Assembly (NCBI GenBank): GCA_050015395.1
Contig: JBEKBM010000012.1
Coordinates: 1 to 64,000, forward strand
Source of the DNA: Candidatus Bathyarchaeia archaeon
GTDB taxonomy: Archaea > Thermoproteota > Bathyarchaeia > Bathyarchaeales > Bathycorpusculaceae
Reading direction: 5' to 3'
DNA: 64,000 bases
Shown here: one piece after another, positions 35,310 to 50,008 of the stretch
Layout of the letters: each line of letters opens with the position of its first letter
Position numbering within the stretch: the stretch's first letter is position 1
Program-made: the position numbers and the translations under genes
The notes under the pieces: model-generated
Database searches by the model: none
What the model was told of the DNA's origin: nothing
What the model saw: only the letters and a program-made list of their open reading frames with translations

Positions 35310-36616
35310 AAGAATCAAATATTGACGTTGAAGTCCACCATATAACCAGAGTTGAAGGACACGGAAACATCAATGTGAATGTCAAAAATGGACTTATAGA
35401 AAAATGTGAATGGAGCATTTCAGAAGCACCAAGGTTCTTTGAAGCCATGGTTGTAGGAAGATCATGGAATGAACTACACCACATTACCTCTCGAATATGC
35501 GGCATATGCTCAATTGGCCATTCACTTGCTTCATTGAAAGCCACAGAATCAGCCTTAGGCATAACTATAAGTGAACAAGACCTAAAACTTAGAAAGCTAG
35601 CATTACACGCGGAAAATATGCAGAGTCACATTTTACATTTAGGTTTTCTTGTTCTGCCTGATTTGATGGGTGTAGGTTCGGTAATTCCTCTTGCGTCTAC
35701 AAATCTTTCAGAGGTTAAGATAGTTCTTCAACTTCACAGAACCGCAAATGAGATGTCAAACTTGATCTGTGGAAGAACAACACATCCTCAAAGATTGATA
35801 CCAGGCGGTTTCTCCAAAATCCCGTCGATGAAAGAATTGATAGTGCTTAGAAAGAAACTGCAAGATTCTATTCCAAACCTTCTAGTCGTGGCGGAATTAT
35901 TTAAGAGCTTAGCAGGCAGATTACCTAACTTCAAAAGAGAAACAGAATTCATTTCTTTAACTGACCCAAGTGAATACGCACTCTATGACGGAAAAATGGC
36001 TTCATCAGACACTGGTACTGCACCAGTAAAAGAATATCTTGCATACACAAACGAGTACATTATTCCGCAATCTACCGCTAAATGGGCAAAGCATACCCGT
36101 GAATCGTACATGGTAGGTGCTTTAGCCAGGCTAAACATCAATTACAAGAGATTATCCCCAATGGCTCAAAAAACAGCTGAGAAGTTCAATCTTCTACCAA
36201 TGTGCTATAATCCTTTCATGAATAGTATTGCTCAACTTGTCGAAGTAGTTCACAGCGTCGAAGATTCGATACGCCTAATAAACGAACTTGAAGCAACAGG
36301 TCTACAACCTCAACCAGACTACAATAAACCAGAAGTCAAATTGAAGGCAGGCACCGGCGTTGGTGCAGTAGAGGCACCAAGAGGCATATTATTCCATGAT
36401 TACACCTACAACGAAAAGGGGATATGCACAAAAGCCAATTGTATAATCCCAACCAACCAAAACCACGGAAACATTCAGTTAGACATGAAATCTATTCTTC
36501 CGCAGATTATCGATAAACCGCAAAAAGAGATCGAGTTAACGCTGGAAATGTTAGTAAGAGCTTACGACCCATGCATTTCTTGCTCCACACACGTTGTAAA
36601 AGTCAACTTAACTTAG
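35306..36616 (+). CDS. hydA: Group 3b NiFe hydrogenase large (alpha) subunit
   Basis: TRVEGHG, SRICGIC (L1), EAPRG, DPCISCSTH (L2) plus a short cleavable tail; ATGA overlap. Confidence 0.94.
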   Translation: MKESNIDVEVHHITRVEGHGNINVNVKNGLIEKCEWSISEAPRFFEAMVVGRSWNELHHITSRICGICSIGHSLASLKATESALGITISEQDLKLRKLALHAENMQSHILHLGFLVLPDLMGVGSVIPLASTNLSEVKIVLQLHRTANEMSNLICGRTTHPQRLIPGGFSKIPSMKELIVLRKKLQDSIPNLLVVAELFKSLAGRLPNFKRETEFISLTDPSEYALYDGKMASSDTGTAPVKEYLAYTNEYIIPQSTAKWAKHTRESYMVGALARLNINYKRLSPMAQKTAEKFNLLPMCYNPFMNSIAQLVEVVHSVEDSIRLINELEATGLQPQPDYNKPEVKLKAGTGVGAVEAPRGILFHDYTYNEKGICTKANCIIPTNQNHGNIQLDMKSILPQIIDKPQKEIELTLEMLVRAYDPCISCSTHVVKVNLT

Positions 36617-36698
36617 ACCGAACGAATCCTTCAGCAGCCAAATATTGACTCAGCCAAAATTCCGATGAGTATCCATCAATAAAGACGGAATTTGATAT

Positions 36699-36815
36699 AT
36701 GGTAGTAAGATTAATTCTTGATTCGGGAAGAAAAATGGTGAATTTGCTATTAGGGTAAGCGACTCATGGCACGGGCTAGGATTAGGATCAAAACTTATGG
36801 ATTACATTATTGGTG
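36699..36815 (+). pseudogene. GNAT acetyltransferase remnant (type found fused to acyl-CoA synthetases)
   Basis: VVRLILDSGRK / GEFAIRVSDSWHGLGLGSKLMDYII read across a shift in the A run at 36731-36735. Confidence 0.65.
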
Positions 36816-37048
36816 TATATTTAGCTCTTGTTTTTTCTTCTTTAGTGCTTTTTTTCTACATTAAAAAACAGCTTTTTCTATGTTGAAAAGCACCGTTCTG
36901 CATGCAAAGTGCGCGGTCTTCGTTCTATGCACATCTATGTTGAATCATATTTGAAGCCTATTAGGATCATCTAGTAGACCGGGAGGTAGGCTGTAGCGCA
37001 CACACAAATCCCTAAGACAAAAACCAAGAACTAAATGCATACCAAATT

Positions 37049-37366
37049 CTAAATATTTAAGTCGTTTAAAAATTTCCAGAATTCTTCGATACACCTGATA
37101 ACTCTTATTTCTAAATAGTTAAAGCCGTAATTTGTGTCCTCATCAATTGGTTCTCTGAAAAAACCCACCGTATGAGGATAATTCTTTTCAAACTCCACAA
37201 CATCCACAATATCCATTAAACTAACTTTAGACTTTGCGTTTCCCCTCTTCCGATCTTTGAACACTACTGAATAGTAAAGGTATTTTCTTCCCTCATTTCC
37301 TGACGCGGGAAAACTGATTAACCAATCCATCTCTTGGAAATGAAAACTTTTCGTTTTTCTTTCCAA
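37049..37366 (-). CDS. Hypothetical protein
   Basis: 105-aa ORF, GAGG upstream of TTG start. Confidence 0.55.
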   Translation of the reverse strand: MERKTKSFHFQEMDWLISFPASGNEGRKYLYYSVVFKDRKRGNAKSKVSLMDIVDVVEFEKNYPHTVGFFREPIDEDTNYGFNYLEIRVIRCIEEFWKFLNDLNI

Positions 37367-37496
37367 TTTCCTAGCGCCTCAACTCAACACATTCAACTAC
37401 CAATGAGCAACACACCTATGTTAATACTTGCCGTCAAAATTAAAGTTCTGACCAGCAAAAATTTTTGACAAGTATTCGATTAATTTTCCTTTTACG

Positions 37497-37570
37497 GTTT
37501 TTTCTAAGCAAAGGTAAATTTAGGTTATTTGGTTCCGACCCATTTTGGTTTCAAATCCCACATCCCCCGT
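37497..37570 (+). repeat. Right copy of the degenerate direct repeat; resembles a tRNA 3' half (GGTTTCAAATCCCACATCCCCCG)
   Basis: GTTTTTTCTAAG ... CCCATTTTGGTTTCAAATCCCACA; partner at 31961-32030. Confidence 0.5.
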
Positions 37571-37881
37571 CATTTCACAAATTATATCTGCAATTAAAAT
37601 TAAGAAATTATCACAAAACAAGCTGGTGAAACTTGTATACTTGTCACCGCACATAATTTTTTTGGTTTGTTCACATTTTTACTTAGCAACAGTTCGATTT
37701 TAGTTAGCGATTGTGAACGATTGTTCAGCTCAGTGATGATAACCTATTAATTGTGCTAGTTACTTTATTTTTGGAAACATAGAAATATAGCAGGCTTATA
37801 GGACGTAGCATTTACGGGTACAAATAAAAAATAAAAAAAGCGATTCGAACAAGCAGTCCTCTTTTGAAGGTAAAGTTCCTA

Positions 37882-37965
37882 GAGTTTCCGATTGTTGGGA
37901 TTGACGCTTCTGCAGGCGGCTTAGAAGCGTTTAAGGTGTTGCTTGAGGGTTTGCCGGTTGAGGCG
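37882..37965 (+). pseudogene. CheB methylesterase N-terminal remnant
   Basis: EFPIVGIDASAGGLEAFKVLLEGLP matches the xPIVGIGASAGGLEA start of CheB/CheR fusions; no continuation. Confidence 0.7.
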
Positions 37966-38015
37966 AACAATCAACTCCACAACTGCTGAAGTCGCCGAAA
38001 GCGGACAAACAGGAA

Positions 38016-38443
38016 ATGAAGGGAAATGATTTAGAGTGCAAGAATTTGAAAGCCGTCTGGGATGATGACAAGAAAAAAGCAGAATTCGCAAAAGGCTTAG
38101 AATCAGCTGCCCGAGCAAGATTTGCGCGAGACGTACAGCACTTGCCCGAAGAAATTTTGAATAAGTGTAAGGAATACATAAAAGACCAGGCTAAAGACCA
38201 GGTTCAAGAGTTAACTGAAGATGCTATAACAGCTTTCTTTGTCGCGGTTCCCGAGTTGGGGTTCTGACACATGTTTTTGTCGAGGTATCCAAGTACATGA
38301 CGAAGGATACTGAAGCTGAACCAAGCTTGTTTGAAAAGTTTGTGAACGACTACAACAGCGTTATTAACACACACGCCGAGGCGACTCGATTAGCTGAGTT
38401 AGCCGACTTCCGATATAACGAGTACAAAACGCATTGTCTGTAA
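38016..38443 (+). CDS. Hypothetical helical protein, probably frameshifted
   Basis: ORF 38016-38267; one extra G in the G4 run at 38258-38261 extends it (VLTHVFVEVSKY...KTHCL*) to 38443. Confidence 0.45.
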
Positions 38444-38580
38444 TTGCCTAAAACACAGTTTATTTGCATTTCGTGTTTTTCATATCTTCTTTTTGTATTT
38501 CTGTTGTACGTATGCCTTTTTTAACAATAAGTAATAATGTTTATTAAGACTTACGACAGCTTACCTTTTAGGAAAATATA

Positions 38581-39048
38581 TTGGCCATCAATAAAGCTGT
38601 CCTAATTTCTATAGTTATATTAGCGCTTACTGGAGTTGTGCTTGCGGTGTTGTCGTCAGGTTTGCTCGTGGCGCAGCAGTCTGTTTCAACTAGTGGTAAT
38701 GTTGGGGGGAGCATTTTAAGTTCGGTTAATATTGGTGTCTTCAGCGATGTAGCTGCAACTTCTAATTGCTCGAGCATTGATTGGGGGAGCTTAAGTGCGG
38801 GCAGCACAGTAACCCAAACCGTTTACGTGAAGAATACTGGCAGCACACCTGAAACGCTGAGCATGGCCACTTCAGACTGGAACCCGTCATCAGCCAATTC
38901 ATCTTTGACTTTGACCTGGAACATGGAAGGCACCTCTTTACCCGCTGGTTTAGTTGTAGCGGCAACGCTTACGCTCACCGTAGCAGCAAATACGGGAAGT
39001 TTAACCAGTTTCAGCTTCAACATAGTGATATCAGGCTCCGCGCAATAG
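38581..39048 (+). CDS. Secreted Ser/Thr-rich beta-sandwich protein, TasA/bundling-pilin-like
   Basis: N-terminal signal/TM; IDWGSLSAG.TVTQTVYVKNTG; terminal FSFNIVISG strand. Confidence 0.65.
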   Translation: MAINKAVLISIVILALTGVVLAVLSSGLLVAQQSVSTSGNVGGSILSSVNIGVFSDVAATSNCSSIDWGSLSAGSTVTQTVYVKNTGSTPETLSMATSDWNPSSANSSLTLTWNMEGTSLPAGLVVAATLTLTVAANTGSLTSFSFNIVISGSAQ

Positions 39049-39252
39049 CAAGAAACATGCTTTACATCTATGCCAGGGTCAATTGATCTGAGCAAGCAGT
39101 TTTTTTATCTGAATTTTTGTTATTCCAGGTTGTGAATCGTTTTTTTTAGGTATTTTTGGATGCGAATTTTAACAAGTTGCTTGGAGTGTTTAGTGCCTTT
39201 AAGGGGCAGTGTATGGAAAACCTTATGTTTCGTTCTGGAGTAATCAATTAAG

Positions 39253-39732
39253 TTGTTCGAGGAGAAAGGTGTGAGTAGAGAAGGAGAGACGCGATTGCGG
39301 GTTACTAAGGATTCGCCTCCAGCTTTTACTGATGCTTCTCTTGAAAGACTCAAGGTGCAAAAGGAATTAGTTGAGAAGCTTAAGGTTCAATGGAAGCTTT
39401 TGTGGAGTGAACGCTTCAACGATAAGGTGAGAGCTGAAGGCGTTTCGGTAAGTGACTACGCATCCTTGCGCGTGGAGCGTGGCACCATTATTCATGCAAC
39501 TAGGGATTTTAAGGCGTTAAATTTTAAGGAAATCCTTGAACAGCACCTTGTTGAAGGCTCTGACCGTTTTGTTCAGCCAGTTGTTGATGTAGGAGGCTGG
39601 AATAAATTCGTAAAAACCAAAATCACCAATCGCATCCCTCAGAGAGACAAGCATAATCTGCTGTATGTTCCTAAGAAGCGGGAAGTTCAACAGCCCAAGA
39701 AAGGCGGGCGCGGTTGGCTTCACGCAACCTAA
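39253..39732 (+). CDS. Hypothetical protein
   Basis: 159-aa ORF ending GGRGWLH; start uncertain (GTG near 39271 possible). Confidence 0.6.
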   Translation: MFEEKGVSREGETRLRVTKDSPPAFTDASLERLKVQKELVEKLKVQWKLLWSERFNDKVRAEGVSVSDYASLRVERGTIIHATRDFKALNFKEILEQHLVEGSDRFVQPVVDVGGWNKFVKTKITNRIPQRDKHNLLYVPKKREVQQPKKGGRGWLHAT

Positions 39733-40119
39733 ACTTCGCTTATTATCAATTATTAAATTTGGTTCTGTTAACTTGTGAGATTTCGGCTTAGATAGGGCAT
39801 TTGTGTGTGCGCTACAGCCTACCCCCTAGTCTACTAGATGCTTCTAATATGCTTCAAATATGTTTCAACATAGGTGTGCATAGAAGTGAGGTGCGCACTT
39901 TTGCATGCAGAATTGGTGAAATTACATGTAGAATTGGATGCAAATTTGTTAGCTTAACATCTTTGCCTATAAAATTGGGTCAGCGATGATTGACGATTTC
40001 TCACAGCTTGGGCTCGAAGCCGTCGCCTCACATCATCCAGGCGCTTAAATGGGTCTTGGAAGATTTATTTATTTTGATATTCAAAAATCAAAATGGTACT
40101 AAGCCACTAAAAAAGCATT

Positions 40120-40347
40120 ATGAAATTTGATGGCTTTCCAAGAGAAAAGACAATCTTATCCTTCAAGCTAACAAATGGTGTAGGCTGGTTAACCACTTAT
40201 CGCCTCATCATTCAACAAGAGAAGCATAACCCGCGCCTCAACATCATGGAGAGGCAAGACCCTGAAATGTACCTTTTACGCGATTTTGAGAAAGCCGAAA
40301 TAAAAGACGAAACGCTCACCGTTAGTGGACTTTTTTTGAGCGTTTAA
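40120..40347 (+). pseudogene. Probably truncated hypothetical gene colliding with the 3' end of the convergent surface-protein gene
   Basis: 75-aa ORF whose last codons overlap 40322-40347 on the other strand. Confidence 0.4.
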
Positions 40348-41455
40348 TCATCATGGTCCACAATGCAAGTGCAGCCGCACAAGCGATGAAAGCACCCGCC
40401 GCGCCTATACTGCTTTCTGGAAGTACGAGTGGCATTGGTACCACAAAGGTTGCGGGGGCTGAAGTGCCTTGGTTGTCTGTTGCGTTAACCGTGTAGCTGC
40501 CAGGGGTTGCGGTTGCTGGGACGGTGAATGTTGCTTTGAAGGAGCCTGTGTCGTCTGTGGTGGTTGTCCCGCTTAGAGTTACGGATGTTCCGTCGAAAGT
40601 TGCTGTCATAGGTGAGTTAACGGCGAAGCCTGAACCAGAAATTGTGATTACATCACCCGGTTGACCTGATGAAGGTGTCAAAGTGATTGATGGTGCTGCG
40701 GGGAAGGTTACGAGTGTGGCTAGCCATGAGCCAACGCCTGCTCCTGTTGTTCCCGATTCGGCTTGACCAGTGGATGAAACAATGTTTTCAAGGTAACTGA
40801 CTGAGATTCCGTTGTTTAATGCTCCGTCAAGTAATAAGAAGCCGTTTGTGGGCGATGATTGGCTATAACCATTTAGGAGTGCGCCGCCAACCCATAGTTC
40901 ATTAGCGTAAGTGGTTGTAGGTGTCTTACCAGTATCTATAACTGCGCTGTTACCCTCGGAATCGGTTAATTGGTCTATATAGTGGTTTTGTATATAAGCG
41001 GTGTCTAGTCCGCTGTATTCGCAAATGTCCGTAGTTGCGCAGGTTATGGTTCCTGTCCCTTGGATAAAGGGTAAGGCAATTGTTATGGTCTTTGATGCGG
41101 TTGCTGAATTTACTAGTCCCCACCACACTTGTATGCTGCAACCGCCGCTACTGCTAGTGGTAGTCCATGAATGGCTAGCGGGCCAGGTTACTCCGGTTTG
41201 AGTTATTTGGGGACCAACTTGGGGCTGGTTTGAACCAGTCAATTCTAGGCCCATTACAGCTATGAGAACATCGCCGCTCTGTGGAGTTTGTGCCAAAGTA
41301 ACTGAAATGGGGCTGCTGCCTGTTGTTGTTCCTTGCGCAGGGCCTTGCACCCGCGTGATAGCTGGAGCTGGATCATTCGCATAAACAGGACTTGGTACAC
41401 AAATTATTACCATACTAAGGACTAGTATACTTATAACTAGAAGAGCCTTCTTCGT
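40322..41455 (-). CDS. Secreted surface protein A (beta-rich domain + IPT/TIG-like domain) with PES-TM-basic C-terminal sorting signal
   Basis: C-terminus VLPESSIGAAGAFIACAAALALWTMMIKRSKKVH; signal peptide extends to an ACG at 41455 that aligns with the paralog's ATG. Confidence 0.85.
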   Translation of the reverse strand, partial: TKKALLVISILVLSMVIICVPSPVYANDPAPAITRVQGPAQGTTTGSSPISVTLAQTPQSGDVLIAVMGLELTGSNQPQVGPQITQTGVTWPASHSWTTTSSSGGCSIQVWWGLVNSATASKTITIALPFIQGTGTITCATTDICEYSGLDTAYIQNHYIDQLTDSEGNSAVIDTGKTPTTTYANELWVGGALLNGYSQSSPTNGFLLLDGALNNGISVSYLENIVSSTGQAESGTTGAGVGSWLATLVTFPAAPSITLTPSSGQPGDVITISGSGFAVNSPMTATFDGTSVTLSGTTTTDDTGSFKATFTVPATATPGSYTVNATDNQGTSAPATFVVPMPLVLPESSIGAAGAFIACAAALALWTMMIKRSKKVH

Positions 41456-41473
41456 AGTTTCCCCTCTCCCTTC

Positions 41474-41583
41474 CTCTCGTTAGCACCTAAATTACACCAT
41501 AGCTTAAATATCCTACATTTCTTGATTGACGGGAGCATGCGGTTGGATGTTTGCTTCTCTTGTCCAGTTTTTTATAGAGTAGC
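41474..41583 (-). promoter_or_regulatory. Conserved upstream element, copy 1
   Basis: Blocks CTCTCGTTAGCAC-TAAAT, TTTCTTGATTGA--GGAGCATGCGGTT-GATGTTTG and GTTTTTTATAGAGTAGC shared with 43447-43562. Confidence 0.7.
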
Positions 41584-42172
41584 GTATGCTAAATGCAAAA
41601 CCCCCCACAACGCACTTCAAGCCAATCACAGAGTAGCAAATGCTTAAAATCTGGGCGAGAAAATTCAATCAAGTAACAAATAACAAATAAAAGCATAAAC
41701 GTATAGGCGTGGATCTGCTGATATTACATCTGTTACTTTTGGCATAAGCAGAAATTTTAATGCTTACCTGAGAATTAAGGACGCGACGACTTATGATAAG
41801 CTTGCTAACGCCAACTTCCTTTATCTTTTAACAATAAGCATCCGTAGCGTAGGCTAATATAGCAATAAAATGGCAAAAGTTGAACGCTTTTTCTTAACAA
41901 CTGGAAAAGTAACCTTAACTTAAAATAAAAAGATCTGAGAAAAACTCACCCAGCAATACAATGACAACACACAACTGAAATTAGCCGACAACCCCTCTGA
42001 AACCGATATAAGATTGATACAAAAAGCGCCAAAAAAATAATGGTGCATGCGATGTCTGTTCAGTTTCCTTCATTGAAATAGCCAGAAAAATATAAATTGG
42101 TTCAACTACCGCGGTTTCGCCAAAGATGTTTTATAAAATATTACGTTGTTCCTTTAACAGGAAGTGAAAACT

Positions 42173-42277
42173 ATGAAAGGGTACGCAGTCAATCATGAAA
42201 AGGAAACCTTAAAAAACAGTAACTTCCGCCACGTTCTTTATACAGGCAGATATAACCAGCTTGTTCTGATGAGTTAG
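42173..42277 (+). pseudogene. Cupin-domain gene remnant (N-terminal 34 aa)
   Basis: MKGYAVNHEKETLKNSNFRHVLYTGRYNQLVLMS* matches the N-terminus of a common cupin family; ends at TAG with no homologous continuation. Confidence 0.7.
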
Positions 42278-42340
42278 CTGCGCCTTTTGAAAAGCTTGGT
42301 TGTATGTAAGCAATAAAAATCCTTAAAAAGAGAAAATTGT

Positions 42341-43429
42341 TTAGTTAATTTTCTTGCGTTTTGTCGCTATTGTCCATACTGCGAGGGCAGCTGCACACGC
42401 AAAAACAGAACTAATCACGCCTACAGGGCTTTCAGGAGTCACTGTGAATGGATTGAGGCTATTATCGGCTGAAGCGCCTTGGTTGTCGGTTGCTATGACC
42501 GTGTAGCCGCCATTGGTTTCGCTTGGGACTTGGAATGTGCACGTGAAATAACCTGTGCTATCTGTGGTTGTTGTGCCGATTAGAGTTAAGGGTGATCCGT
42601 CGAAAGTTGCTGTCATTGGTGAGTCAACGGCGAATCCATAACCAGTAAGCGTGATAGTAGCCCCCGGCCCACCGTAGTTAGGCGTTAGAGTTATCGATGG
42701 GGTTGCGGGTAAGGTTACAAGTATGGCTACCCAAACGCCTGATCCACCAACCGCGGTGGTTCCTGACTCAGCGTTACCGGTTGATGAAACGATGTTTTCT
42801 AGATAGCTTAGGGAGATACCAGTGCTTATGGCACCATCAAGTAATGTGAACCCGTGAGTGGGCGATGATTGAGCGTAAGTGTTTAAAATTGCGCCGCCAA
42901 CCCACAACTCGTTTGCATAAGTTGTTGGATCAGTTGCAGTAGTGTCTGTGGTTGTGGTGGGGCTAGTCTTTGTTTTTGAAGCAGTTTGGTCTCCCTGGGG
43001 GTGACTTATTATGTAAGCTGTGTTTAATCCGCTATACTCGCAAACATCTGCAACGGCAGAAGTGATTGTTCCTGTTAGAGAGATTGTTGTGGTTTTGGAT
43101 GCGCTTGCTGAGTCGACTATACCAGCCCACACTTCTATATCGTAACCAGTCATTGAAGTGGAAAAGATGTTATACCAAGTTACTCCAGTTTGACTTATTG
43201 AGCCAACACTAGGCGATGTACCCTTTGCACCTATTACAGCTACGAGCACATTGCCGCTGCTGGGTGTGTTTGACAGCGTAACTGAAAGAGAGCCCAGGGT
43301 TAATATTCCTCGGGCATTGCCTTGCACCCGTGTAATAGCTTGTGGACCGTTTGCGTGTACAAAGCTAGGTAAACTGACTAATACGATGCTCAAAATTAAT
43401 ACTATGGTAATTATAAGATTTTTCTTCAT
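42341..43429 (-). CDS. Secreted surface protein B, paralog of A, with PES-TM-basic C-terminal sorting signal
   Basis: Signal peptide MKKN...VHA; shared ITRVQG, CEYSGL, YANELWVGGA, PSITLTP, DNQG motifs; C-terminus VTPESPVGVISSVFACAAALAVWTIATKRKKIN. Confidence 0.88.
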   Translation of the reverse strand: MKKNLIITIVLILSIVLVSLPSFVHANGPQAITRVQGNARGILTLGSLSVTLSNTPSSGNVLVAVIGAKGTSPSVGSISQTGVTWYNIFSTSMTGYDIEVWAGIVDSASASKTTTISLTGTITSAVADVCEYSGLNTAYIISHPQGDQTASKTKTSPTTTTDTTATDPTTYANELWVGGAILNTYAQSSPTHGFTLLDGAISTGISLSYLENIVSSTGNAESGTTAVGGSGVWVAILVTLPATPSITLTPNYGGPGATITLTGYGFAVDSPMTATFDGSPLTLIGTTTTDSTGYFTCTFQVPSETNGGYTVIATDNQGASADNSLNPFTVTPESPVGVISSVFACAAALAVWTIATKRKKIN

Positions 43430-43446
43430 AGTTTACCCTCACCTTT

Positions 43447-43562
43447 CTCTCGTTAGCACTTAAATCAGCGCCACTAGTTTATATGTTTTATCCCTTTCTT
43501 GATTGATAGGAGCATGCGGTTAGATGTTTGATTCGCATACGCCCCGTTTTTTATAGAGTAGC
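43447..43562 (-). promoter_or_regulatory. Conserved upstream element, copy 2
   Basis: Same three blocks as 41474-41583, in the same order and spacing. Confidence 0.7.
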
Positions 43563-43609
43563 TTACTTCTGCCCAGTTGTTACGTCGTTCTATCTTAACC
43601 TTAACGTTT

Positions 43610-45625
43610 TTAGTAGGGAACCCATTCCACGTATATTTCGTCATTTATAGCTGATATTTTTTGGTATAATATTTGATTTTGGCGGAATTCCTCTATTTTG
43701 TTTTCGTAATGATTTGCGTTCCCTTGCGGAAGGTCAGGGTTTTCAAATTGTTTGTTCTTAAGTTGTTTAAGCAGGGTTTTGTCTGCTTCGGGGAGGGCTG
43801 CGATTTTTTTCCGAGCCGCAACGCGCATTAATAATTTCTTGCCTGTCAGCGTGGCTATTGAGAAGATTAGTATTATGGCTACGAATATGGTGGATGCTTC
43901 TTGGTTTCTGTATATGTCAATGACGAAAGTGCTGTTGGATATTTTGAATTGACCCCATATGTTTTCGTAGGCTTGGCTAAGAGAGAACAGCTGAGTCGTT
44001 GCTGCTTGAATGTTCATTGCTTGAGCAGTTTGGTTGTTTATGTCTGTAACGTATTTTAGTAAAGTGATTTTGACGGCATAATTGGTTATTGTGCCGTTTG
44101 TTTCCAGATTGAGAGAGTCAAACCAGTAAACTAGATCAAGTGTCTGATTGAGGGTCGGAGCATTTGCAATGATTTCTTCTCCGTTTACGATGCTATCGTT
44201 TTGATCGTATATGGTTAGGTCAGTTATTTTTTCGATGTTTATGGGGTATGCTTGATAGTTTAGGCATCCTTCCCAAGTGTGGAATTGCGATTGAAGATTG
44301 GAAACCTCGAAAATTGCGTATACTGTATTAGAGCTGCTATTTTGTGTGAGGAGGTAGTCGCCTACAAAAATCAAACCCAATTCTTGTTCAGCTTGTGTCT
44401 CTCGCCCTAAGAAAGCTGCAGACCAACCAGTGGCGTTTGAGAAAGCGGCAAGTTCACCCGTGCTAGGGTTGAAGTTTAGGGCTGATTCGTCCCCTTTCGC
44501 TACGACGTTATAATTTACTGCTGCCGCTTGAACTATGAGGTCTGAACAAATCAAAAGAAAAAGCAAAACTATCGCCATTCGTCTCCAGTCAATTTTAGTT
44601 TTGGGCCAATGGAGAATTCGCCCGCATTTGTCGCATATTGTTTGTGAGTTCTTGCAAAAAGAGCAAACGTTGGCTTTCCCTTGTATAAAAGAAAGCTTAA
44701 GCACTTTGCTTCCGAAATACAACAAAATTAGTGTTCCGACGAATGCAAGCGCTGTTCCGGCGACGTCATGGAAGAATTCGAGGGCCAAGCCGAGACCCCA
44801 AAAGTGCCCCAGAACAACCATTGTAATTATTCTAAACACATTAAGGAAGTAAGCTGCACAAACAGCGAGAGCAGCGTAAAGGATTTTTTTGATTGGGGAA
44901 CCAGAAGCTAGGTAGCCGAAAACAACTGCGCAGAACAGAAAGGCGGTTAGGGAATATATTCCGGAACATGCGGCGTCCAAAGAAAACTGAATTTTTGCTC
45001 CAGCTGCGGTGATGGTGCTTAATACTACAATCGGTTGATAGGTAATGCCAATTGGAAGGAAGGGCTTAAGAATTGAGGATGCCAAAGCACCGTCCGAAGA
45101 CATCAGGTTTCCGCCGTAAGCATCCATGAAAAATAGTGGAAAAGGACTTAGGAAAGCTACCAAGGCGATTGGAAAAACCAGTAGTTTAAGCGTGTCAGCG
45201 CCGAAAATAAGCAGGGTTACGCCTGCGACAAAGATGGGCAGAGATAGAAGGTGAAGTTGCAGTGAATAGAAGGAGTAGGAACCCAAAACATATATGAGAA
45301 GTGCTAACAGTAAAAGGGATACGCCAAATAAATCTTGAGACTTGGAGTTTTTGCGTGAAACCAAAAAGGCTTTTCTGCGTCTATAAAAGAAGTAGGCTAC
45401 AACAAAGGGAACCAGCAGGACATACTGTGCTTCCTGATCGGATAGGGCGAGGCTAAACACTTGCACGAAGTCTTGAAAATACGTTACGATTGGAAATATG
45501 AGAAACAATGAGAGTTTAATGCTAAGGGGCACAAAATTCGGCGATTTTAAGGCTGCCCTCCAATTGAACAATCCGCTCTTTATTTTCTCAATGTTCAACT
45601 GTCCTGGGTTCCCCTCTGGTCTCAA
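43610..45625 (-). CDS. Exosortase/archaeosortase family protein with Zn-ribbon and EpsI-like extracellular extension
   Basis: About 8 TMs with the Cys/Arg/His triad region (AACSGI, NVFRI, FFHD); CSFC...CDKC; TM; soluble domain with FHTWEGC; final TM. Confidence 0.88.
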   Translation of the reverse strand: MRPEGNPGQLNIEKIKSGLFNWRAALKSPNFVPLSIKLSLFLIFPIVTYFQDFVQVFSLALSDQEAQYVLLVPFVVAYFFYRRRKAFLVSRKNSKSQDLFGVSLLLLALLIYVLGSYSFYSLQLHLLSLPIFVAGVTLLIFGADTLKLLVFPIALVAFLSPFPLFFMDAYGGNLMSSDGALASSILKPFLPIGITYQPIVVLSTITAAGAKIQFSLDAACSGIYSLTAFLFCAVVFGYLASGSPIKKILYAALAVCAAYFLNVFRIITMVVLGHFWGLGLALEFFHDVAGTALAFVGTLILLYFGSKVLKLSFIQGKANVCSFCKNSQTICDKCGRILHWPKTKIDWRRMAIVLLFLLICSDLIVQAAAVNYNVVAKGDESALNFNPSTGELAAFSNATGWSAAFLGRETQAEQELGLIFVGDYLLTQNSSSNTVYAIFEVSNLQSQFHTWEGCLNYQAYPINIEKITDLTIYDQNDSIVNGEEIIANAPTLNQTLDLVYWFDSLNLETNGTITNYAVKITLLKYVTDINNQTAQAMNIQAATTQLFSLSQAYENIWGQFKISNSTFVIDIYRNQEASTIFVAIILIFSIATLTGKKLLMRVAARKKIAALPEADKTLLKQLKNKQFENPDLPQGNANHYENKIEEFRQNQILYQKISAINDEIYVEWVPY

Positions 45626-46206
45626 TCTAAATAGCCATGGTTTATTAAGCTTTAAGAAGCAGAAATATAATTTGCATCCTTAAGAACATAGCGCAGATCT
45701 AGCAGATTGACTGATCTGCAATTGTATTAGCAGGTTTTAAGAAGACAATTTACTCCTTTTTTTATTCAAGCCAAGCATAATTTCAAAAGCCAAAGATAAT
45801 ATTCATCTAAAACTGAAAGCGTTCAACGTAGCTAATTTAGCAATTATGGAAAAAAATGAAACTTTAGCTTATTTCTTACGGGCTGATTGTCTCCCATGTA
45901 ACCTAACGCTTAACCGCATTGCTGAGCGTTGCTTTTTGCTTGGCTAAGTTCTCTCGGCATGGGACTTTTCGCGCCCGCGCCTCACCTGTTCCATAATTGG
46001 GTAGAACTCCTTCGTCATAGGTGCAAGATTTGTTGTGCTTGCTTCCTCTGTTAAGTCCGTCGTTATGGGTGCTCATTTTTGGTGAGGCAATAAAAATAAG
46101 TGCGAGGGGATTGGTTAAATGTTGCTGTGTGATCACGCATGTTCATTGTTACTAGTCACTAAAGTTCATTGTTATAGAGTGCTTTTGAGAGCGCTAAAAG
46201 TGCATT

Positions 46207-47205
46207 TCATTTGATTATGTTTTGCGGTTTGCCTTGAATGAAGGCTTTAATGTTTTCAATGGTGCCGTTAACAAGCCGCTCTAAGGACTCTTTACTGTTA
46301 AACGCGCAATGAGGCGTTATAATCACGTTTTTGAGCCTCAAAAGAATATGCTCTTGCAGCATCGTTGCCAACTGTTCCCGTGGAATATTATCCAAAAGCA
46401 ACTGTGCCTCCTCTCGAATAAGTGCTTCTTGCTCCAAAACATCCAAGCCTGCGCCTCTGAGATGACCACTCAAAAGTGCTTCAGTTAGCGCTTGTGAATC
46501 GATGAGCCCGCCTCTTGCGGTATTGATTACGACGGCGCCCCTCTTCATGAGTTTGATGGTGTCCTTGTTTAAGAAGTGATGAGTCTCATTGTTGAATGGC
46601 AAATGTAAAGTAACCACGTCTGACTGCGCTAGCAAGTCAGGCCAATCCACATATTTGAAGCCTAAAGCGTCTGCCAAATTCATGTTAGGAAACTTATCAT
46701 AAGCCAACACTTCCATCCTGAAGCCCTTAGCTATCTCAATCACTTTGGTGCCAATCCTACCAGTGCCCAGAACTCCGAGGATTTTTCCGTTTAAATCAAA
46801 GCCTCGAACGCCTTCACATGTGAAGTCGCCTTGACGTGTTCTCTCGTAAGAGTCATGGATATTGCGTGAGAGGGAAAGAATCAAAGCGAACGTGTGCTCA
46901 GCAACAGTAACCTCGCCATAGGTAGGAACATTGCAAACTAAAATGCCCCTTCGCCTGCAAGCTTCAAGGTCTATGTGGTCAAAACCCGTTGAACGAGTAG
47001 CGATTAAACGTGCCTTTTCAAGTTTATCGATGACGCCGCTGTTCAGGTTAGAGTAAATGAAAACTGAGACAACCTCAAAATCCACAACTTGGTCAACGTT
47101 TGCTTCACTTAATTCTTCCTTGAACAGGCGAATCTCATAATCGGCTAACCCCTTTTCTAGAAGGGGCTGCTCCCAGTCTTGAACCTCAAAGAAAGCAATC
47201 TTCAA
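46207..47205 (-). CDS. D-2-hydroxyacid dehydrogenase (D-lactate dehydrogenase-like)
   Basis: RSTGFDHID, VAEH, GVLGTGRIG, INTARG, GLDVLEQE, ITPH. Confidence 0.9.
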   Translation of the reverse strand: MKIAFFEVQDWEQPLLEKGLADYEIRLFKEELSEANVDQVVDFEVVSVFIYSNLNSGVIDKLEKARLIATRSTGFDHIDLEACRRRGILVCNVPTYGEVTVAEHTFALILSLSRNIHDSYERTRQGDFTCEGVRGFDLNGKILGVLGTGRIGTKVIEIAKGFRMEVLAYDKFPNMNLADALGFKYVDWPDLLAQSDVVTLHLPFNNETHHFLNKDTIKLMKRGAVVINTARGGLIDSQALTEALLSGHLRGAGLDVLEQEALIREEAQLLLDNIPREQLATMLQEHILLRLKNVIITPHCAFNSKESLERLVNGTIENIKAFIQGKPQNIIK

Positions 47206-47670
47206 AAAACTCGCCGCTGTAACATTGAGTCTTATGCTTGGTATAAATAATTTGGTATGTATTTTAATCCCTAAAGTGTGAAAAACAATGAGCAGAACAC
47301 ATTAAAACTTCTATCACAGTACCAGAAATAGGGGTACTTTTTTTGGTCGTTTGGATAACAAAAAGAGGGTAAGTAGGTTATTTTTAGCTAGTGGGAATAG
47401 GTCTAAAAAATAGGCAGATAGGCGTAATATTGCCTTAGACATTGCATAGAAAATCCTAAAAGGCGTATACTATTTGCTTGGCAGTTTCAGTAGCAAAAAG
47501 AAGGCTTCCCCCGTGGGTAAGCCAGCTTCTCAAACAAGCGTTTATAAGCTGTTATGGACGTGCCTTCCTTGGTAGAGAGTTAGCCATGTTATCTTCTAAG
47601 AGTTAAAACGCTAATTCCGATTGGTAAGGTTTAAGTGTGACATTCATGCTTTATGTGCAAGGTGCATTAA

Positions 47671-47832
47671 ATGCCAACTCACGGTTCATTATCTAAAGCT
47701 GGAAAAGTCCGCTCTCAAACGCCGAAAATCCAGGCGACACCAAAAACATCGCCAAGCCCAAAAAACCGAAGCAGACGCAACTACGAGAAACGCGTGATTC
47801 TGCAGAGGAAACCTGGGCAAAACTGGCTCTAA
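47671..47832 (+). CDS. rps30e: Ribosomal protein eS30 (S30e), absent from the ORF track
   Basis: [20 protein letters not shown]...RRNYEKR, 53 aa; AGGTG RBS. Confidence 0.95.
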
Positions 47833-47916
47833 GCGTTAGACCTATAGAAATAGGTTATCGTCACTTTTTTGACAAAAGTTAAGAGAAGATGGCGGTCTTA
47901 ATATTATGTGATAGAT

Positions 47917-48107
47917 ATGGATGAAACACCAGAAATTTATCCACAATTAAAAAAATTGAAAATGACATCGAAACTATTAAGATTCTTCTAATAAGAGGTC
48001 GAAAAATGCCAAGGAAAATAGCGAAGTTGGAAGGTTCACTTAAGGCAGAGATAAGCGAAGAGGATATTGAAGAAGCGGAAAAATCGATTTTCAAGTTTAG
48101 TGACTAA
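47917..48107 (+). pseudogene. Putative antitoxin, frameshifted at an A7 run
   Basis: One extra A at 47949-47955 gives MDETPEIYPQLKKIENDIETIK...KLEGSLKAEISEEDIEEAEKSIF; immediately precedes a PIN remnant. Confidence 0.55.
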
Positions 48108-48108
48108 A

Positions 48109-48302
48109 ATGTATGTAACTGATGCGCATGCTTTTCTTTGGTTTCTTTTACAAGATAAAAAAGAAGGCAAGAAAGCCTTGGAAATTTTTCGAGCGAGCTG
48201 CATGACCGAATAATAGTTGCCACAGCAAAACTCTTGAACGCTAAGCTGATAACAAAAGATGCTAACATAATTGATTCCAAACTAGTTGAGACCATCTGGT
48301 AA
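48109..48302 (+). pseudogene. PIN-domain (VapC) toxin with large internal deletion
   Basis: MYVTDAHAFLWFL start and ELHDRIIVATAKLLNAKLITKD...TIW* end in different frames, middle missing. Confidence 0.75.
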
Positions 48303-48391
48303 GTTTAACTCATAAGCAAAAACTGTTTTTTCAAGCCTTAAACGCTCCTCAACGTTAGTGTAGTTTATTTATCACTTAACTAAACCATATT

Positions 48392-50008
48392 TTGGTACCT
48401 TCAACCTTGAAAAACGAAAATGCCTTACGGGAAATCATAAACATTCTAATGGAAATGCCGCATCCCACACGTGAAGAAGCGAACCGCCTAAAAATAAAAA
48501 CCGCAGCCAAATACCAACTTGAGGAGGTGCCGTCAAACGCTGATTTAATAAGGCTTTTAACGCCAAAAGAAGCAAAGCGCCTTTTACCCATTTTGCGAAG
48601 GAAGACAACGCGCACAATCTCTGGAGTAACAGTAGTCGCCACCATGACTAAACCCTACCCGTGTCCACAGCCAGAACCATGCGCCTACTGCCCCGGAGGA
48701 CCAACCCAGGGCTCTCCGCAAAGTTACACTGGACATGAGCCGGCAGCCATGCGCGGAACCCAAAACAACTTCGACCCCTACATGCAAGTCAGAAGCCGCA
48801 TCGACCAGCTCTCAGCAATTGGGCACAAAGTGGATAAAATCGAGCTAATCGTCATGGGAGGAACTTTCCCCGCAACGCCCGTGGAGTACCAAACGTGGTT
48901 TATCCAACGCTGCCTAGACGCAATAACAGGCAAAAACTCCCAGAGCTTAGAGGAGGCAAAAGCAAACGCTGAAACAAGCAAAACTCGCAACGTAGGCATA
49001 ACCGTGGAAACTCGTCCAGACTGGGCAAAACAACCGCACATAAACGCAATGCTGGACATGGGAGTAACGCGCATTGAACTTGGCGTACAAAACCCAGACG
49101 ACGAGATATACCGTTTAGTCGGCAGAACCCACACTGTAGCAGACGTAGAAGAAGCAACACGCATCGCAAAGGACGCGGGACTCAAAATTGTTTACCACTT
49201 AATGCCTGGAATGCCCGGCTCCAACCCGCAAAAGGACCTTGCCGCGTTCAAGCGGGTTTTCACTGACCCAGCCTTCAAGCCAGACATGATTAAAATTTAC
49301 CCGTGCCTGTGCATCGCTGGCACAAAAGCCAATGAATGGTACCAAAGCGGCACCTACAAACCCTACACAACAGAACAAGCGGTTGAACTTATCGCTGAAG
49401 TCAAAAAGTTCATCCCGCCGTGGGTAAGAGTGATGCGTGTTCAACGGGACATTCCAGCAGGACTCATCTTGGCTGGTGTTAAGAAGAGCAACCTACGCCA
49501 ACTTGTGCATGAACAACTCAAGGCGCAAGGCGACAAGTGCCAATGCATCCGATGCAGAGAAGTGGGGCACAGAATGGCAGTTGACCATGTGAAGCCAGAT
49601 CTGGAAAAAATCAAAATCCAATCAATCAGGTATGATGCTTCCGAGGGCAAGGAAGTCTTCATTTCAGCCGAAGATCAACAAAATAACATCCTGTTAGGCT
49701 ATTTGCGTTTGCGTGTACCATCCGCGAAGGCGCACAGGCCAGAAATCGCCGTTGCACCATCCGCTATTGTTCGTGAGCTTCACGTTTACGGTCCACTTGT
49801 GCCAGTTGGAAAACACTCTGTTGGCGCTTGGCAGCATAAAGGCTTTGGTGCAGACTTGCTAAGGGAAGCGGAACGCATGGCGCTTGAGGATTATGATTTG
49901 AAAAAGCTTTTAGTTATAAGTGCGTTAGGAACAAGAAGATATTACATGCGTTTCGGTTACGAGCGCGATGGAGTTTACGTATCCAAAAAACTGGAGAACC
50001 CTCGATGA
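48392..50008 (+). CDS. elp3: tRNA uridine(34) carboxymethylation enzyme Elp3 (radical SAM + KAT)
   Basis: RTISGV, CPQPEPCAYCPGG, QSYTGHEP, MGGTF, ETRPD, KIYP, RVQRDIP, CIRCRE, RELHVYG, QHKGFG. Confidence 0.95.
   Translation: MVPSTLKNENALREIINILMEMPHPTREEANRLKIKTAAKYQLEEVPSNADLIRLLTPKEAKRLLPILRRKTTRTISGVTVVATMTKPYPCPQPEPCAYCPGGPTQGSPQSYTGHEPAAMRGTQNNFDPYMQVRSRIDQLSAIGHKVDKIELIVMGGTFPATPVEYQTWFIQRCLDAITGKNSQSLEEAKANAETSKTRNVGITVETRPDWAKQPHINAMLDMGVTRIELGVQNPDDEIYRLVGRTHTVADVEEATRIAKDAGLKIVYHLMPGMPGSNPQKDLAAFKRVFTDPAFKPDMIKIYPCLCIAGTKANEWYQSGTYKPYTTEQAVELIAEVKKFIPPWVRVMRVQRDIPAGLILAGVKKSNLRQLVHEQLKAQGDKCQCIRCREVGHRMAVDHVKPDLEKIKIQSIRYDASEGKEVFISAEDQQNNILLGYLRLRVPSAKAHRPEIAVAPSAIVRELHVYGPLVPVGKHSVGAWQHKGFGADLLREAERMALEDYDLKKLLVISALGTRRYYMRFGYERDGVYVSKKLENPR

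Follow-up and report, generated by a model that had tools for sequence, protein, structure and literature searches.

The question raised by a 64,000-nucleotide stretch of DNA from a Candidatus Bathyarchaeia archaeon (GenBank assembly GCA_050015395.1, contig JBEKBM010000012.1, positions 1 to 64,000 of the forward strand; hereafter, the window) is whether it encodes a protein-sorting system of a kind of its own or a local form of one that is more widely used. On the minus strand of the window, three open reading frames (ORFs) lie head to tail: an exosortase-family enzyme of 671 amino acids (43610-45625), a secreted protein of 362 amino acids, here called cargo A (42341-43429), and a paralogue of the latter, cargo B, which the ORF list gives as 363 amino acids (40322-41413) in a frame that, as called, begins at an internal ATG. 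In the initial annotation of this DNA, it was postulated that these genes form a dedicated pair of sortase and signal, in which the substrates are marked by a "PES" motif and by a conserved Cys and Trp within the following membrane helix. The analysis presented here points to another placement. With a probability of about 0.77, the locus is a local instance of an archaeal exosortase system that has so far escaped curation and that would work like the bacterial PEP-CTERM/exosortase system. As to novelty, it is best filed as an uncurated archaeal variant of PEP-CTERM/exosortase and not as a categorically new PES system.

The window is contig C12 of a 42-contig, 2.59-Mb genome, and the stretch is present in 24 listed metagenome runs from peat and wetland. 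Exactly two exosortase/archaeosortase homologues are found in this genome, the 671-amino-acid enzyme of the window and a 354-amino-acid protein on contig C18. The former is a member of the exosortase/archaeosortase superfamily with an intact Cys/Arg/His set, and in this respect the initial annotation has been borne out: it clears the thresholds of both general models, with 130.7 bits versus 25.7 for Pfam PF09721 and 66.8 bits versus 23 for NCBIfam TIGR04178, the search of the whole genome gives it 72.1 bits, and a structure model also underlies the assignment. Its multi-helix membrane core (residues 31-308; 44702-45535, minus strand) contains Cys220 (codon 44966-44968), Arg265 (codon 44831-44833), and His286 (codon 44768-44770). 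C220 (within ACSG), N262, R265 (LNVFRI), and H286 (FFH) do not vary among 19 of 19 aligned family members; over 35 aligned sequences, the same holds for R265 and H286, and the conservation of C220 is 90% or higher. The real start of the enzyme is probably the second TTG (45596-45598), nine codons after the listed one, because the product, which begins MNIEKIKSGLFNW..., then matches the start of a 70% identical orthologue (MNSEKIKKVLFNW...). This TTG is preceded by GAGGGG and would give a protein of 662 amino acids.

When the enzyme and the window's sorting tails are scored against curated hidden Markov models, a check that had been proposed at the outset, neither reaches the cut-off of any specific curated pair. 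In the NCBIfam scan, the enzyme passes no specific Xrt or Art model, and its best partial scores, as well as its Cys/Arg/His core, liken it to the bacterial PEP-CTERM/EpsH enzymes: 97.1 bits on XrtD (TIGR04152; cut-off 400), 79.8 on EpsH (TIGR02602; cut-off 105.55), 78.6 on XrtA (cut-off 208), and 66.9 on XrtW (NF038142; cut-off 425). The score on ArtC (TIGR03762) is 20.3 bits (cut-off 100), and the thaumarchaeosortase (TIGR04297) and ArtA (TIGR04125) models give no match in the same scan. Three further family members likewise remain below the cut-offs of the specific Xrt models. In the Protein Data Bank, Foldseek returned no match to the enzyme at E ≤ 0.001, and a sequence search gave no meaningful match.

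By type, this is a bacterial-style exosortase with a fused ectodomain, as distinct from the archaeosortases ArtA-ArtD. In the AlphaFold model (predicted local distance difference test [pLDDT] 84.2; predicted template-modelling score [pTM] 0.84), residues 31-308 form packed long helices. Between this core and the next membrane helix (residues 347-372) lies a Cys4 ribbon (CxxC...CxxC, residues 321-334; 44624-44665, minus strand), which spans residues about 311-338 in the model and would sit in the cytoplasm; its cysteines, C321, C324, C331, and C334, are 80-95% conserved in the 19-member alignment, as confirmed on the 35 sequences. There follow an alpha/beta ectodomain (residues 383-558; 43952-44479, minus strand), delimited from the model and from conservation, and a further membrane helix (residues 575-610). 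The ectodomain contains a motif, H449-x-W451-E452-x-C454-L455, that is conserved in both alignments. The protein ends in a small domain (residues 613-671; 43613-43789, minus strand), which is modelled as two helices and a beta-hairpin, includes a Trp (W668) that is 80-95% conserved, and looks winged-helix-like when judged by eye. Neither this domain nor the ribbon, each taken alone, has a match in Pfam. The fusion of the core to a C-terminal ectodomain recalls the bacterial EpsH-EpsI fusions XrtD and XrtW; the XrtD model aligns residues 63-522 of the enzyme to model positions 7-436 of 486, and in a relative of the enzyme the alignment to the XrtW model reaches residue 515. The Cys4 ribbon and the cytoplasmic end domain set the Bathyarchaeia enzyme apart from the bacterial system, to which they are additional.

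This architecture of exosortase core, Cys4 ribbon, ectodomain, and cytoplasmic tail characterizes a family found throughout the Bathyarchaeia. In an order-level sample of 61 related genomes, the 671-amino-acid type occurs in 19; genome G014 has copies at 60% and 66% identity, and the remaining matches, at 22-36%, are mostly open frames of ~690-720 amino acids. A class-level sample was drawn evenly and comprises 251 Bathyarchaeia genomes, 20 of which (~8%) have the full-length enzyme; this set was fixed before tails were searched for and leaves out, from the 31 listed matches, eleven that cover the core alone, ten of them weak and to ArtC-like proteins and one of 288 amino acids. In a large protein database, 78 relatives are found at E ≤ 1e-10 and fall into two groups, a close one of 68 proteins with 41-76% identity to the enzyme and a distant one of nine (P0070-P0078) with ~28-34%. 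Where these have database names at all, they are called just "exosortase" or "exosortase/archaeosortase family protein," and the cargo is labelled "hypothetical." One close paralogue, in G014 (L061:9334-14688; G014:C1), lies inside a single frame of 1784 amino acids; it has no Cys4 ribbon and carries ~1100 extra C-terminal residues of unassigned nature.

The second element of the locus is the signal. Cargo A ends ...FTVTPESPVGVISSVFACAAALAVWTIATKRKKIN and cargo B ends ...LVLPESSIGAAGAFIACAAALALWTMMIKRSKKVH, that is, V-x-P-E-S-x-x-G, a membrane helix, and a Lys/Arg tail, exactly the tripartite arrangement that had been described. In cargo A, the tail (42344-42451, minus strand) reads PFTV-TPES-PVG, then the helix SSVFACAAALAVWTIA, then TKRKKIN; in cargo B (40325-40435, minus strand), it reads MPLV-LPES-SIG, AAGAFIACAAALALWTMMI, and KRSKKVH. 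Taken alone, as 32 and 50 residues, the window tails match no C-terminal sorting model of NCBIfam at E ≤ 10. A strict search of the genome for the CAAALA helix finds only the two window paralogues, and this result at first made the signal look unique, which a profile built from the neighbours of related sortases showed not to be the case. On this profile, the cargo A tail scores 55.8 bits (E 1.2e-14; residues 335-358 are helical in the model) and the cargo B tail 53.0 bits (E 8.7e-14), and in the whole 2.59-Mb genome five places are found at E ≤ 1e-4. Two of the five lie within 3.3 kb downstream of the sole enzyme of this type; because cargo A and cargo B are a tandem duplicate, the two are counted as one event, for which the odds of a chance placement are ~0.006. 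Two more belong to proteins with signal peptides on other contigs, one of 334 amino acids on C4 (...MVTPESAIG..., with neither Cys nor Trp in its tail) and one of 403 amino acids on C15 (...ATPEYPLG...). The fifth is a further cargo-like gene on C15 (G000:C15:39685-39792; L136:3186-3293), in which a TGA directly follows VTPESS and is itself followed, in frame, by GTLTVTAAGFAAFGAFGIFKISRKK. With the TGA in this position, the tail is cut off just where the enzyme would be expected to cut, and the gene may be either a pseudogene or the source of a form that is secreted rather than anchored. The genome thus holds four intact tails and one interrupted tail, cargo A and cargo B being two of at least four cargo genes that are intact.

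Related loci show how much of the signal is held constant. Among ten 20-kb regions around related sortases, small secreted proteins stand directly beside the enzyme in five (L062, L063, L064, L066, and L068), and the ends of the neighbour proteins in those regions include VVPEYALGGLAALGACF...KKR, VLPESAYGALSALAACAAGF...K, YLPESPLGS..., and VVPQYPLG...; tails of the form VVPEIPVLG... are seen in the shorter loci L017 and L023. In relatives, sortases of ~30% identity are directly flanked by VVPEYxxG, VLPESxxG, or VVPEIPVLG tails, each followed by a helix and Lys/Arg. Across 18 aligned neighbour tails, the Pro is invariant and the Gly nearly so, with the consensus xxxVVPEYPxGxLxALxACFxAFxxFKxR. 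Among 58 parsed tails, PEY is found in 30, PES in 13, PEI in five, PEV in three, PQY in two, and five other motifs once each; PEP, PEA, and PDS are seen as well in tails from metagenome loci, and a true VPEP is present in 12 of 63 tails beside other members of the archaeal enzyme family. Dispersed VLPES, VVPES, VLPEY, TPEY, TPEF, and TPEN tails occur in the genomes of G014, L005, and L006. The third motif residue is free (P, Y, S, I, V, or A), and the Pro-Glu and the Gly three residues on are fixed; the latter are therefore the positions that the enzyme probably reads.

Given these counts, the idea of a PES signal class with its own conserved Cys and Trp has to be abandoned. A helix Cys is present in 36 of the 58 parsed tails and a helix Trp in only five, with a Trp near the helix end recurring in the orthologous cargo family. 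The ACAAALAxWT pattern is a sign of recent duplication rather than of the signal, since the other tails of the genome and of the family differ from it. Nor is PES tied to one clade of sortases. In G034 and G008, PES and PEY tails together flank a single sortase that is 28-30% identical to the window's enzyme, so PES also occurs outside the clade to which the initial annotation had assigned it, at the level of the subclade. PES is one third-position variant of a wider signal and not a class of its own.

The argument that enzyme and tails work together is carried by their joint distribution. At the order level, tails at E ≤ 1e-4 are present in 16 of the 19 genomes with the enzyme and in 2 of the 42 without it, a count that is partly circular because 12 of the 16 had supplied tails to the profile. 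The class-level comparison, a nearly independent one in which such tails are found in 21 genomes, gives 18 of 20 with the enzyme versus 3 of 231 without it, and 16 of 18 versus 3 of 231 when the two genomes that were sources of the profile are removed. The co-occurrence that had been set out as a check is found, for the wider enzyme family. In 10 of the 18 class-level genomes having both, a tail lies within ~5 kb of the enzyme. Metagenome data provide a further view. In the best 80 loci of 406 enzyme relatives, a profile-positive tail falls within 5 kb in 23, and all listed tail genes are on the strand of the enzyme, mostly within 600 bp. With a looser pattern, which is permissive in that it also catches tails of the PEF type and the ends of a few permeases, 46 of the 80 loci have a tail, as do 21 of the 28 whose flanks each extend for 3 kb or more, and the density of such tails is 0.127 per kb in the metagenome flanks versus 0.0066 per kb for the genome of the window. 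In many of the loci with no profile-positive tail, neighbours end in FVVPEP..., LVVPEA..., or FVVPDS..., then a helix and RKR. Besides the window's locus, ten loci of the close clade were available, and in five of these a tail gene, encoding a different cargo protein, lies 51-556 bp downstream of the enzyme. From these sequence comparisons, the pairing of enzyme and signal across the Bathyarchaeia appears to be real and is well supported.

Several findings weigh against this reading of the locus. Real-looking tails occur without an enzyme of this type in the order-level genomes G026, G051, and G024 (E 6.9e-4 in G024), where only ArtC-like sortases were found, and in the class-level genomes G170, G051, and G220; such tails may be processed otherwise, may not be processed, or may belong with an enzyme gene that was not assembled. 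Conversely, the enzyme is found without a tail in the class-level genomes G137 and G215 and in the order-level genomes G039, G055, and G056, the last three having enzyme matches that are fragmentary or partial. The closest orthologues of the enzyme (70%, 62%, and 60% identity; L005, L006, and G014) have no adjacent cargo. Kinship among the compared genomes means that their independence is overstated by the counts. In contrast to the loci of many relatives, that of the window shows no polysaccharide genes, the family scanned for being the flippase PF01943, which is not present on its contig. Furthermore, the ectodomain alone matches no family in Pfam or NCBIfam, so no model confirms homology to EpsI (TIGR02914/DUF3485), and with Foldseek it gives weak START/Bet v 1-like rows only. 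Because of this, and because no solved structure matches, its EpsI-like nature, to which its position and the XrtD/XrtW alignments point, is probable but unproven. Finally, cargo B has no canonical start before its signal peptide and may not be exported. A predicted complex of the enzyme core (residues 25-345) with a 36-residue tail (score 0.01, against a mark of 0.32) speaks neither for nor against the pairing. What these observations remove is strict dedication: with other tails on C4 and C15 and with the closest orthologous enzymes lacking adjacent cargo, the system is not strictly the dedicated pair that had been postulated.

Of the alternatives, the one that survives best concerns cargo B. 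The two proteins are paralogues encoded on the same strand, as had been noted at the outset, and are 59-61% identical; cargo A is the only one with a complete, ATG-started signal peptide. It is possible, at somewhat less than even odds, that cargo A is the only working substrate and that cargo B is a decaying or silenced duplicate. In the alignable 5' region, the position of the ATG of cargo A is occupied in cargo B by ACG (41453-41455), and no in-frame ATG, GTG, or TTG is present upstream of it. Since the homologous start is this ACG, the ORF that begins at the internal ATG (41413; 363 amino acids) starts in the middle of the signal peptide; from the ACG, the protein (40322-41455, minus strand) would have 377 amino acids. 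The ACG is not an assembly slip, because the contigs of four sequencing runs from 2017-2020 are identical here and show no difference anywhere in the cargo B stretch. In a further assembly, the start called for an orthologue of 93% identity is a GTG that lies later still, and there, too, the product has no signal peptide. On the other hand, the cargo B frame is otherwise intact over 363 codons in both populations and its tail is perfectly kept, and a Shine-Dalgarno-like GGAGAGGGG is retained before the ACG, so initiation at the ACG would be possible.

The regions upstream of the two genes fit with their common origin. Two conserved blocks, one of them TATA-like (43546-43562) and the second at 43509-43521, lie in the spacer between enzyme and cargo A (43430-43609, minus strand); the region upstream of cargo B (41456-41600, minus strand) aligns with this spacer and has the same TATA-like block at 41567-41583 and the second at 41532-41544, ~140 bp having been duplicated along with the gene. 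Cargo A and cargo B arose by a recent tandem duplication, and each is preceded by a promoter-like region of its own, in which the TATA-like block would serve as a promoter. The 927-bp spacer between the two cargo genes holds no ORF of at least 60 amino acids, and an Rfam scan of 36500-48500, the spacer included, gives no match at E ≤ 0.1. For 65 bases of this spacer (41931-41995), three of the four runs contain separate short contigs that match but for 3-5 differences, and this stretch looks like a small repeated element.

It is improbable that the tails are plain membrane anchors that are never cut, with the pairing reflecting no more than the shared inheritance of an island of surface-protein genes. 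Cleavage is an assumption in the present analysis, the compared genomes are kin, and some tails occur without the enzyme, all of which would fit with such an explanation. However, the Pro and the Gly are near-invariant and keep a fixed spacing before the helix across unrelated cargo of 80 to over 1000 residues, and this argues against a plain anchor, which would not be expected to keep them. In addition, the catalytic Cys, Arg, and His are kept in all aligned enzyme members, and the pairing extends over several of the class's families and recurs on metagenome contigs whose cargo differs.

The other sortase of the genome, on C18, scores 71.6 bits on the thaumarchaeosortase model and 39.3 bits on ArtC, both below cut-off. 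The genome also has eight tails of the VPEF/VPEL/IPEA type, and the VPEF tails, used as a control, give 11.9-17 bits on PEF-CTERM (cut-off 23) in 3 of 3 cases, whereas the window tails give no match at E ≤ 10; the genome therefore carries two classes of tail and two sortases, the ArtC/PEF-type system being its other sorting pathway. An earlier option, that the PES tails are a variant of PEF-CTERM, here in the form of divergent signals handled by the C18 ArtC-like sortase with the 671-amino-acid enzyme acting elsewhere, can be given very little credence: the two signals do have V-P-E, a helix, and basic residues in common, and both the second sortase and its eight tails do exist, but the PEF-type tails differ in build, following Pro/Thr-rich linkers and lacking the x-x-G, the PES/PEY-x-x-G tails are almost confined to genomes with the exosortase and do not follow the second sortase (present in 43 of the 61 genomes and in 31 of the 36 of the genus), and G006 and G043 have tails and exosortase with no second sortase found. 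As a separate observation, six or more proteins of the genome (on C1, C10, C23, and C27 and two on C19) end ...TATPTS(V/I)AN(M/L)YFVP, then a helix and LRK(K/R)P; in five, the length is 850-950 amino acids, and the sixth, on C27, is cut by the contig end. A more divergent protein on C6 probably belongs to this set as well. One member scores 14.9 bits on the GGIII-like transmembrane region model (cut-off 22), and the TATPTS...YFVP end may represent a third anchoring signal in this genome.

Returning to the exosortase system, its relation to those already named can be considered, the comparison covering the Art and Xrt systems modelled in NCBIfam and others known to us. The nearest is the bacterial PEP-CTERM/EpsH system with its EpsI fusions. 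Haft et al. (2006; PMC1569441) describe PEP-CTERM as a Pro-Glu-Pro that hardly varies, followed by a helix of 14 residues and a cluster of basic ones, present in many copies per genome on cargo encoded in single-gene units behind long spacers; they also report EpsH-EpsI fusions, a location among polysaccharide genes, and an occurrence in hosts with an outer membrane and in no Archaea. The system of the window shares with this scheme a tripartite tail at the extreme C-terminus (V-P-E-x, helix, basic residues), an N-terminal signal peptide, several cargo proteins per genome, and cargo that has little homology to known proteins and stands alone behind long spacers. The link to polysaccharides has a counterpart in three of the four relatives tested, in which a Wzx-type flippase (PF01943) is encoded within 3.5 kb of the enzyme. 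The differences are that the host is an archaeon, that all specific models remain far from their cut-offs, and that the third motif residue is Ser in the window and most commonly Tyr in the family, with a nearly invariant Gly three residues after the motif. The PEP-CTERM model (TIGR02595) misses the window tails at E ≤ 10 and gives at best E 0.37, for one of 18 family tails. To our knowledge, archaea of this group have no outer membrane.

Among archaeal systems, ArtC/PEF-CTERM and thaumarchaeosortase/PEFG-CTERM have in common with the present one the superfamily and a V-P-E-x, helix, and basic tail. However, ArtC/PEF-CTERM differs from it in the low ArtC score of the enzyme, in the absence of any match to the PEF-CTERM model (TIGR03024) among the 22 family tails tested, and in distribution. 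A cut before the C-terminal helix that depends on Cys, with transfer to a membrane-bound acceptor, would be the point of likeness to ArtA, whose signal is PGF and which is small, with neither ribbon nor ectodomain nor end domain. For ArtA/PGF-CTERM of Haloferax volcanii, cleavage and lipid anchoring have reportedly been demonstrated by experiment, and we know of no other archaeal member for which this is so. The sole curated tail model to be passed by any of 22 family tails is Loki-CTERM (NF033507), with 24.8 bits versus a cut-off of 19.9 for one PEY tail of G030; the two window tails have no match to it at E ≤ 10. In the literature searched, no mention of the name Loki-CTERM was found, nor any description of a Bathyarchaeia system of this enzyme and VPE-x-x-x-G tails.

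Taken together, these comparisons suggest how the system would operate. The cargo would be exported by the Sec pathway by means of its N-terminal signal peptide and would then be tethered by the C-terminal helix and basic tail, so placing V-x-P-E-(S/Y)-x-x-G at the outer face of the membrane. There, the motif would be recognized by the enzyme, with its eight-helix-type core (Cys220, Arg265, and His286), Cys4 ribbon, EpsI-like ectodomain, and small cytoplasmic end domain. A cut at or near the motif would proceed through a Cys-acyl intermediate, and the mature protein would be passed to an acceptor on the cell surface, either lipid or glycan. Cleavage, the acyl-enzyme, and the acceptor are proposed here by analogy with what is known of the family.

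The cargo itself offers a lead of a different kind. Cargo A (42341-43429, minus strand; model pLDDT 92.1) consists of a signal peptide (residues 1-26, with a helix at 3-19), an N-terminal beta-sandwich domain (33-242), an immunoglobulin (Ig)-like domain (244-327), and the sorting tail. The Ig-like domain is of the IPT/TIG type, with Z scores of 8-11 over ~75-85 residues versus IPT/TIG and related beta-sandwich domains, and was the only part (residues 241-328) matched by Foldseek and by a wide structural search; on the NCBIfam GxPGS Ig-like domain, cargo A has 26.1 bits, below the cut-off of 45. The N-domain corresponds to no family in Pfam, NCBIfam, or PHROGs. It (42704-43333 in the window) is shared, among the relatives P0092-P0141, by many proteins of 230-260 amino acids that start MAITRVQGNARG and have no signal peptide, one of them being a fusion with a head-protein domain of the phage Mu F-like type. 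In the ESM Atlas, the nearest clusters are of mostly viral hypothetical proteins (cosine 0.96, template-modelling score 0.80-0.82). As a lead only, the N-domain may represent a structural domain of viruses that has been copied to the cell surface.

Some neighbouring genes can be noted. On the plus strand, 38581-39048 encodes a 155-amino-acid protein with a hydrophobic N-terminal helix and a beta-rich body, and the adjoining 39253-39732 encodes a basic 159-amino-acid protein whose C-terminal end is ...GGRGWLHAT. Pfam has no family for either, and similar pairs recur near related sortases in L062, L063, L064, and L066. The 159-amino-acid protein was considered as a part of the sorting system and was rejected, as it belongs to a multi-copy family that is present in 39 of the 61 related genomes and does not follow the enzyme; the window's genome has four matches, one of them partial. 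A membrane protein of ~210 amino acids that contains LLNYTPWGIRLTP as a motif is encoded repeatedly within a few kb of sortases of the distant clade, often after tail genes (L149:15902-16543, L156:14224-14886, L067:16994-17605, L068:12598-13254, and others), and is not present near the window's enzyme.

A bolder version of this hypothesis, which we regard as doubtful, is that the enzyme family with its tails represents a true archaeal PEP-CTERM system, in which surface proteins are attached to a glycan that is exported, and not to a lipid, and in which the cargo includes a beta-sandwich shared with viruses of these archaea. If so, the acceptor chemistry of exosortases would need no outer membrane, and viral-type beta-sandwich proteins would be displayed on the cell surface, for example, as a decoy or as a receptor mimic. 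The reading preferred here, that of an uncurated archaeal exosortase system, carries a more immediate meaning. Exosortases are widespread, yet we know of no bacterial member for which an acceptor or a product has been defined; the compact archaeal version, with few cargo proteins, a single membrane, and frequent adjacency to a glycan flippase, would allow the identity of the acceptor to be addressed in a simpler context. Bathyarchaeia are a dominant uncultured group in peat and sediments, and one enzyme model together with one tail model would give a name to a sorting pathway, and to a set of surface proteins, in these organisms.

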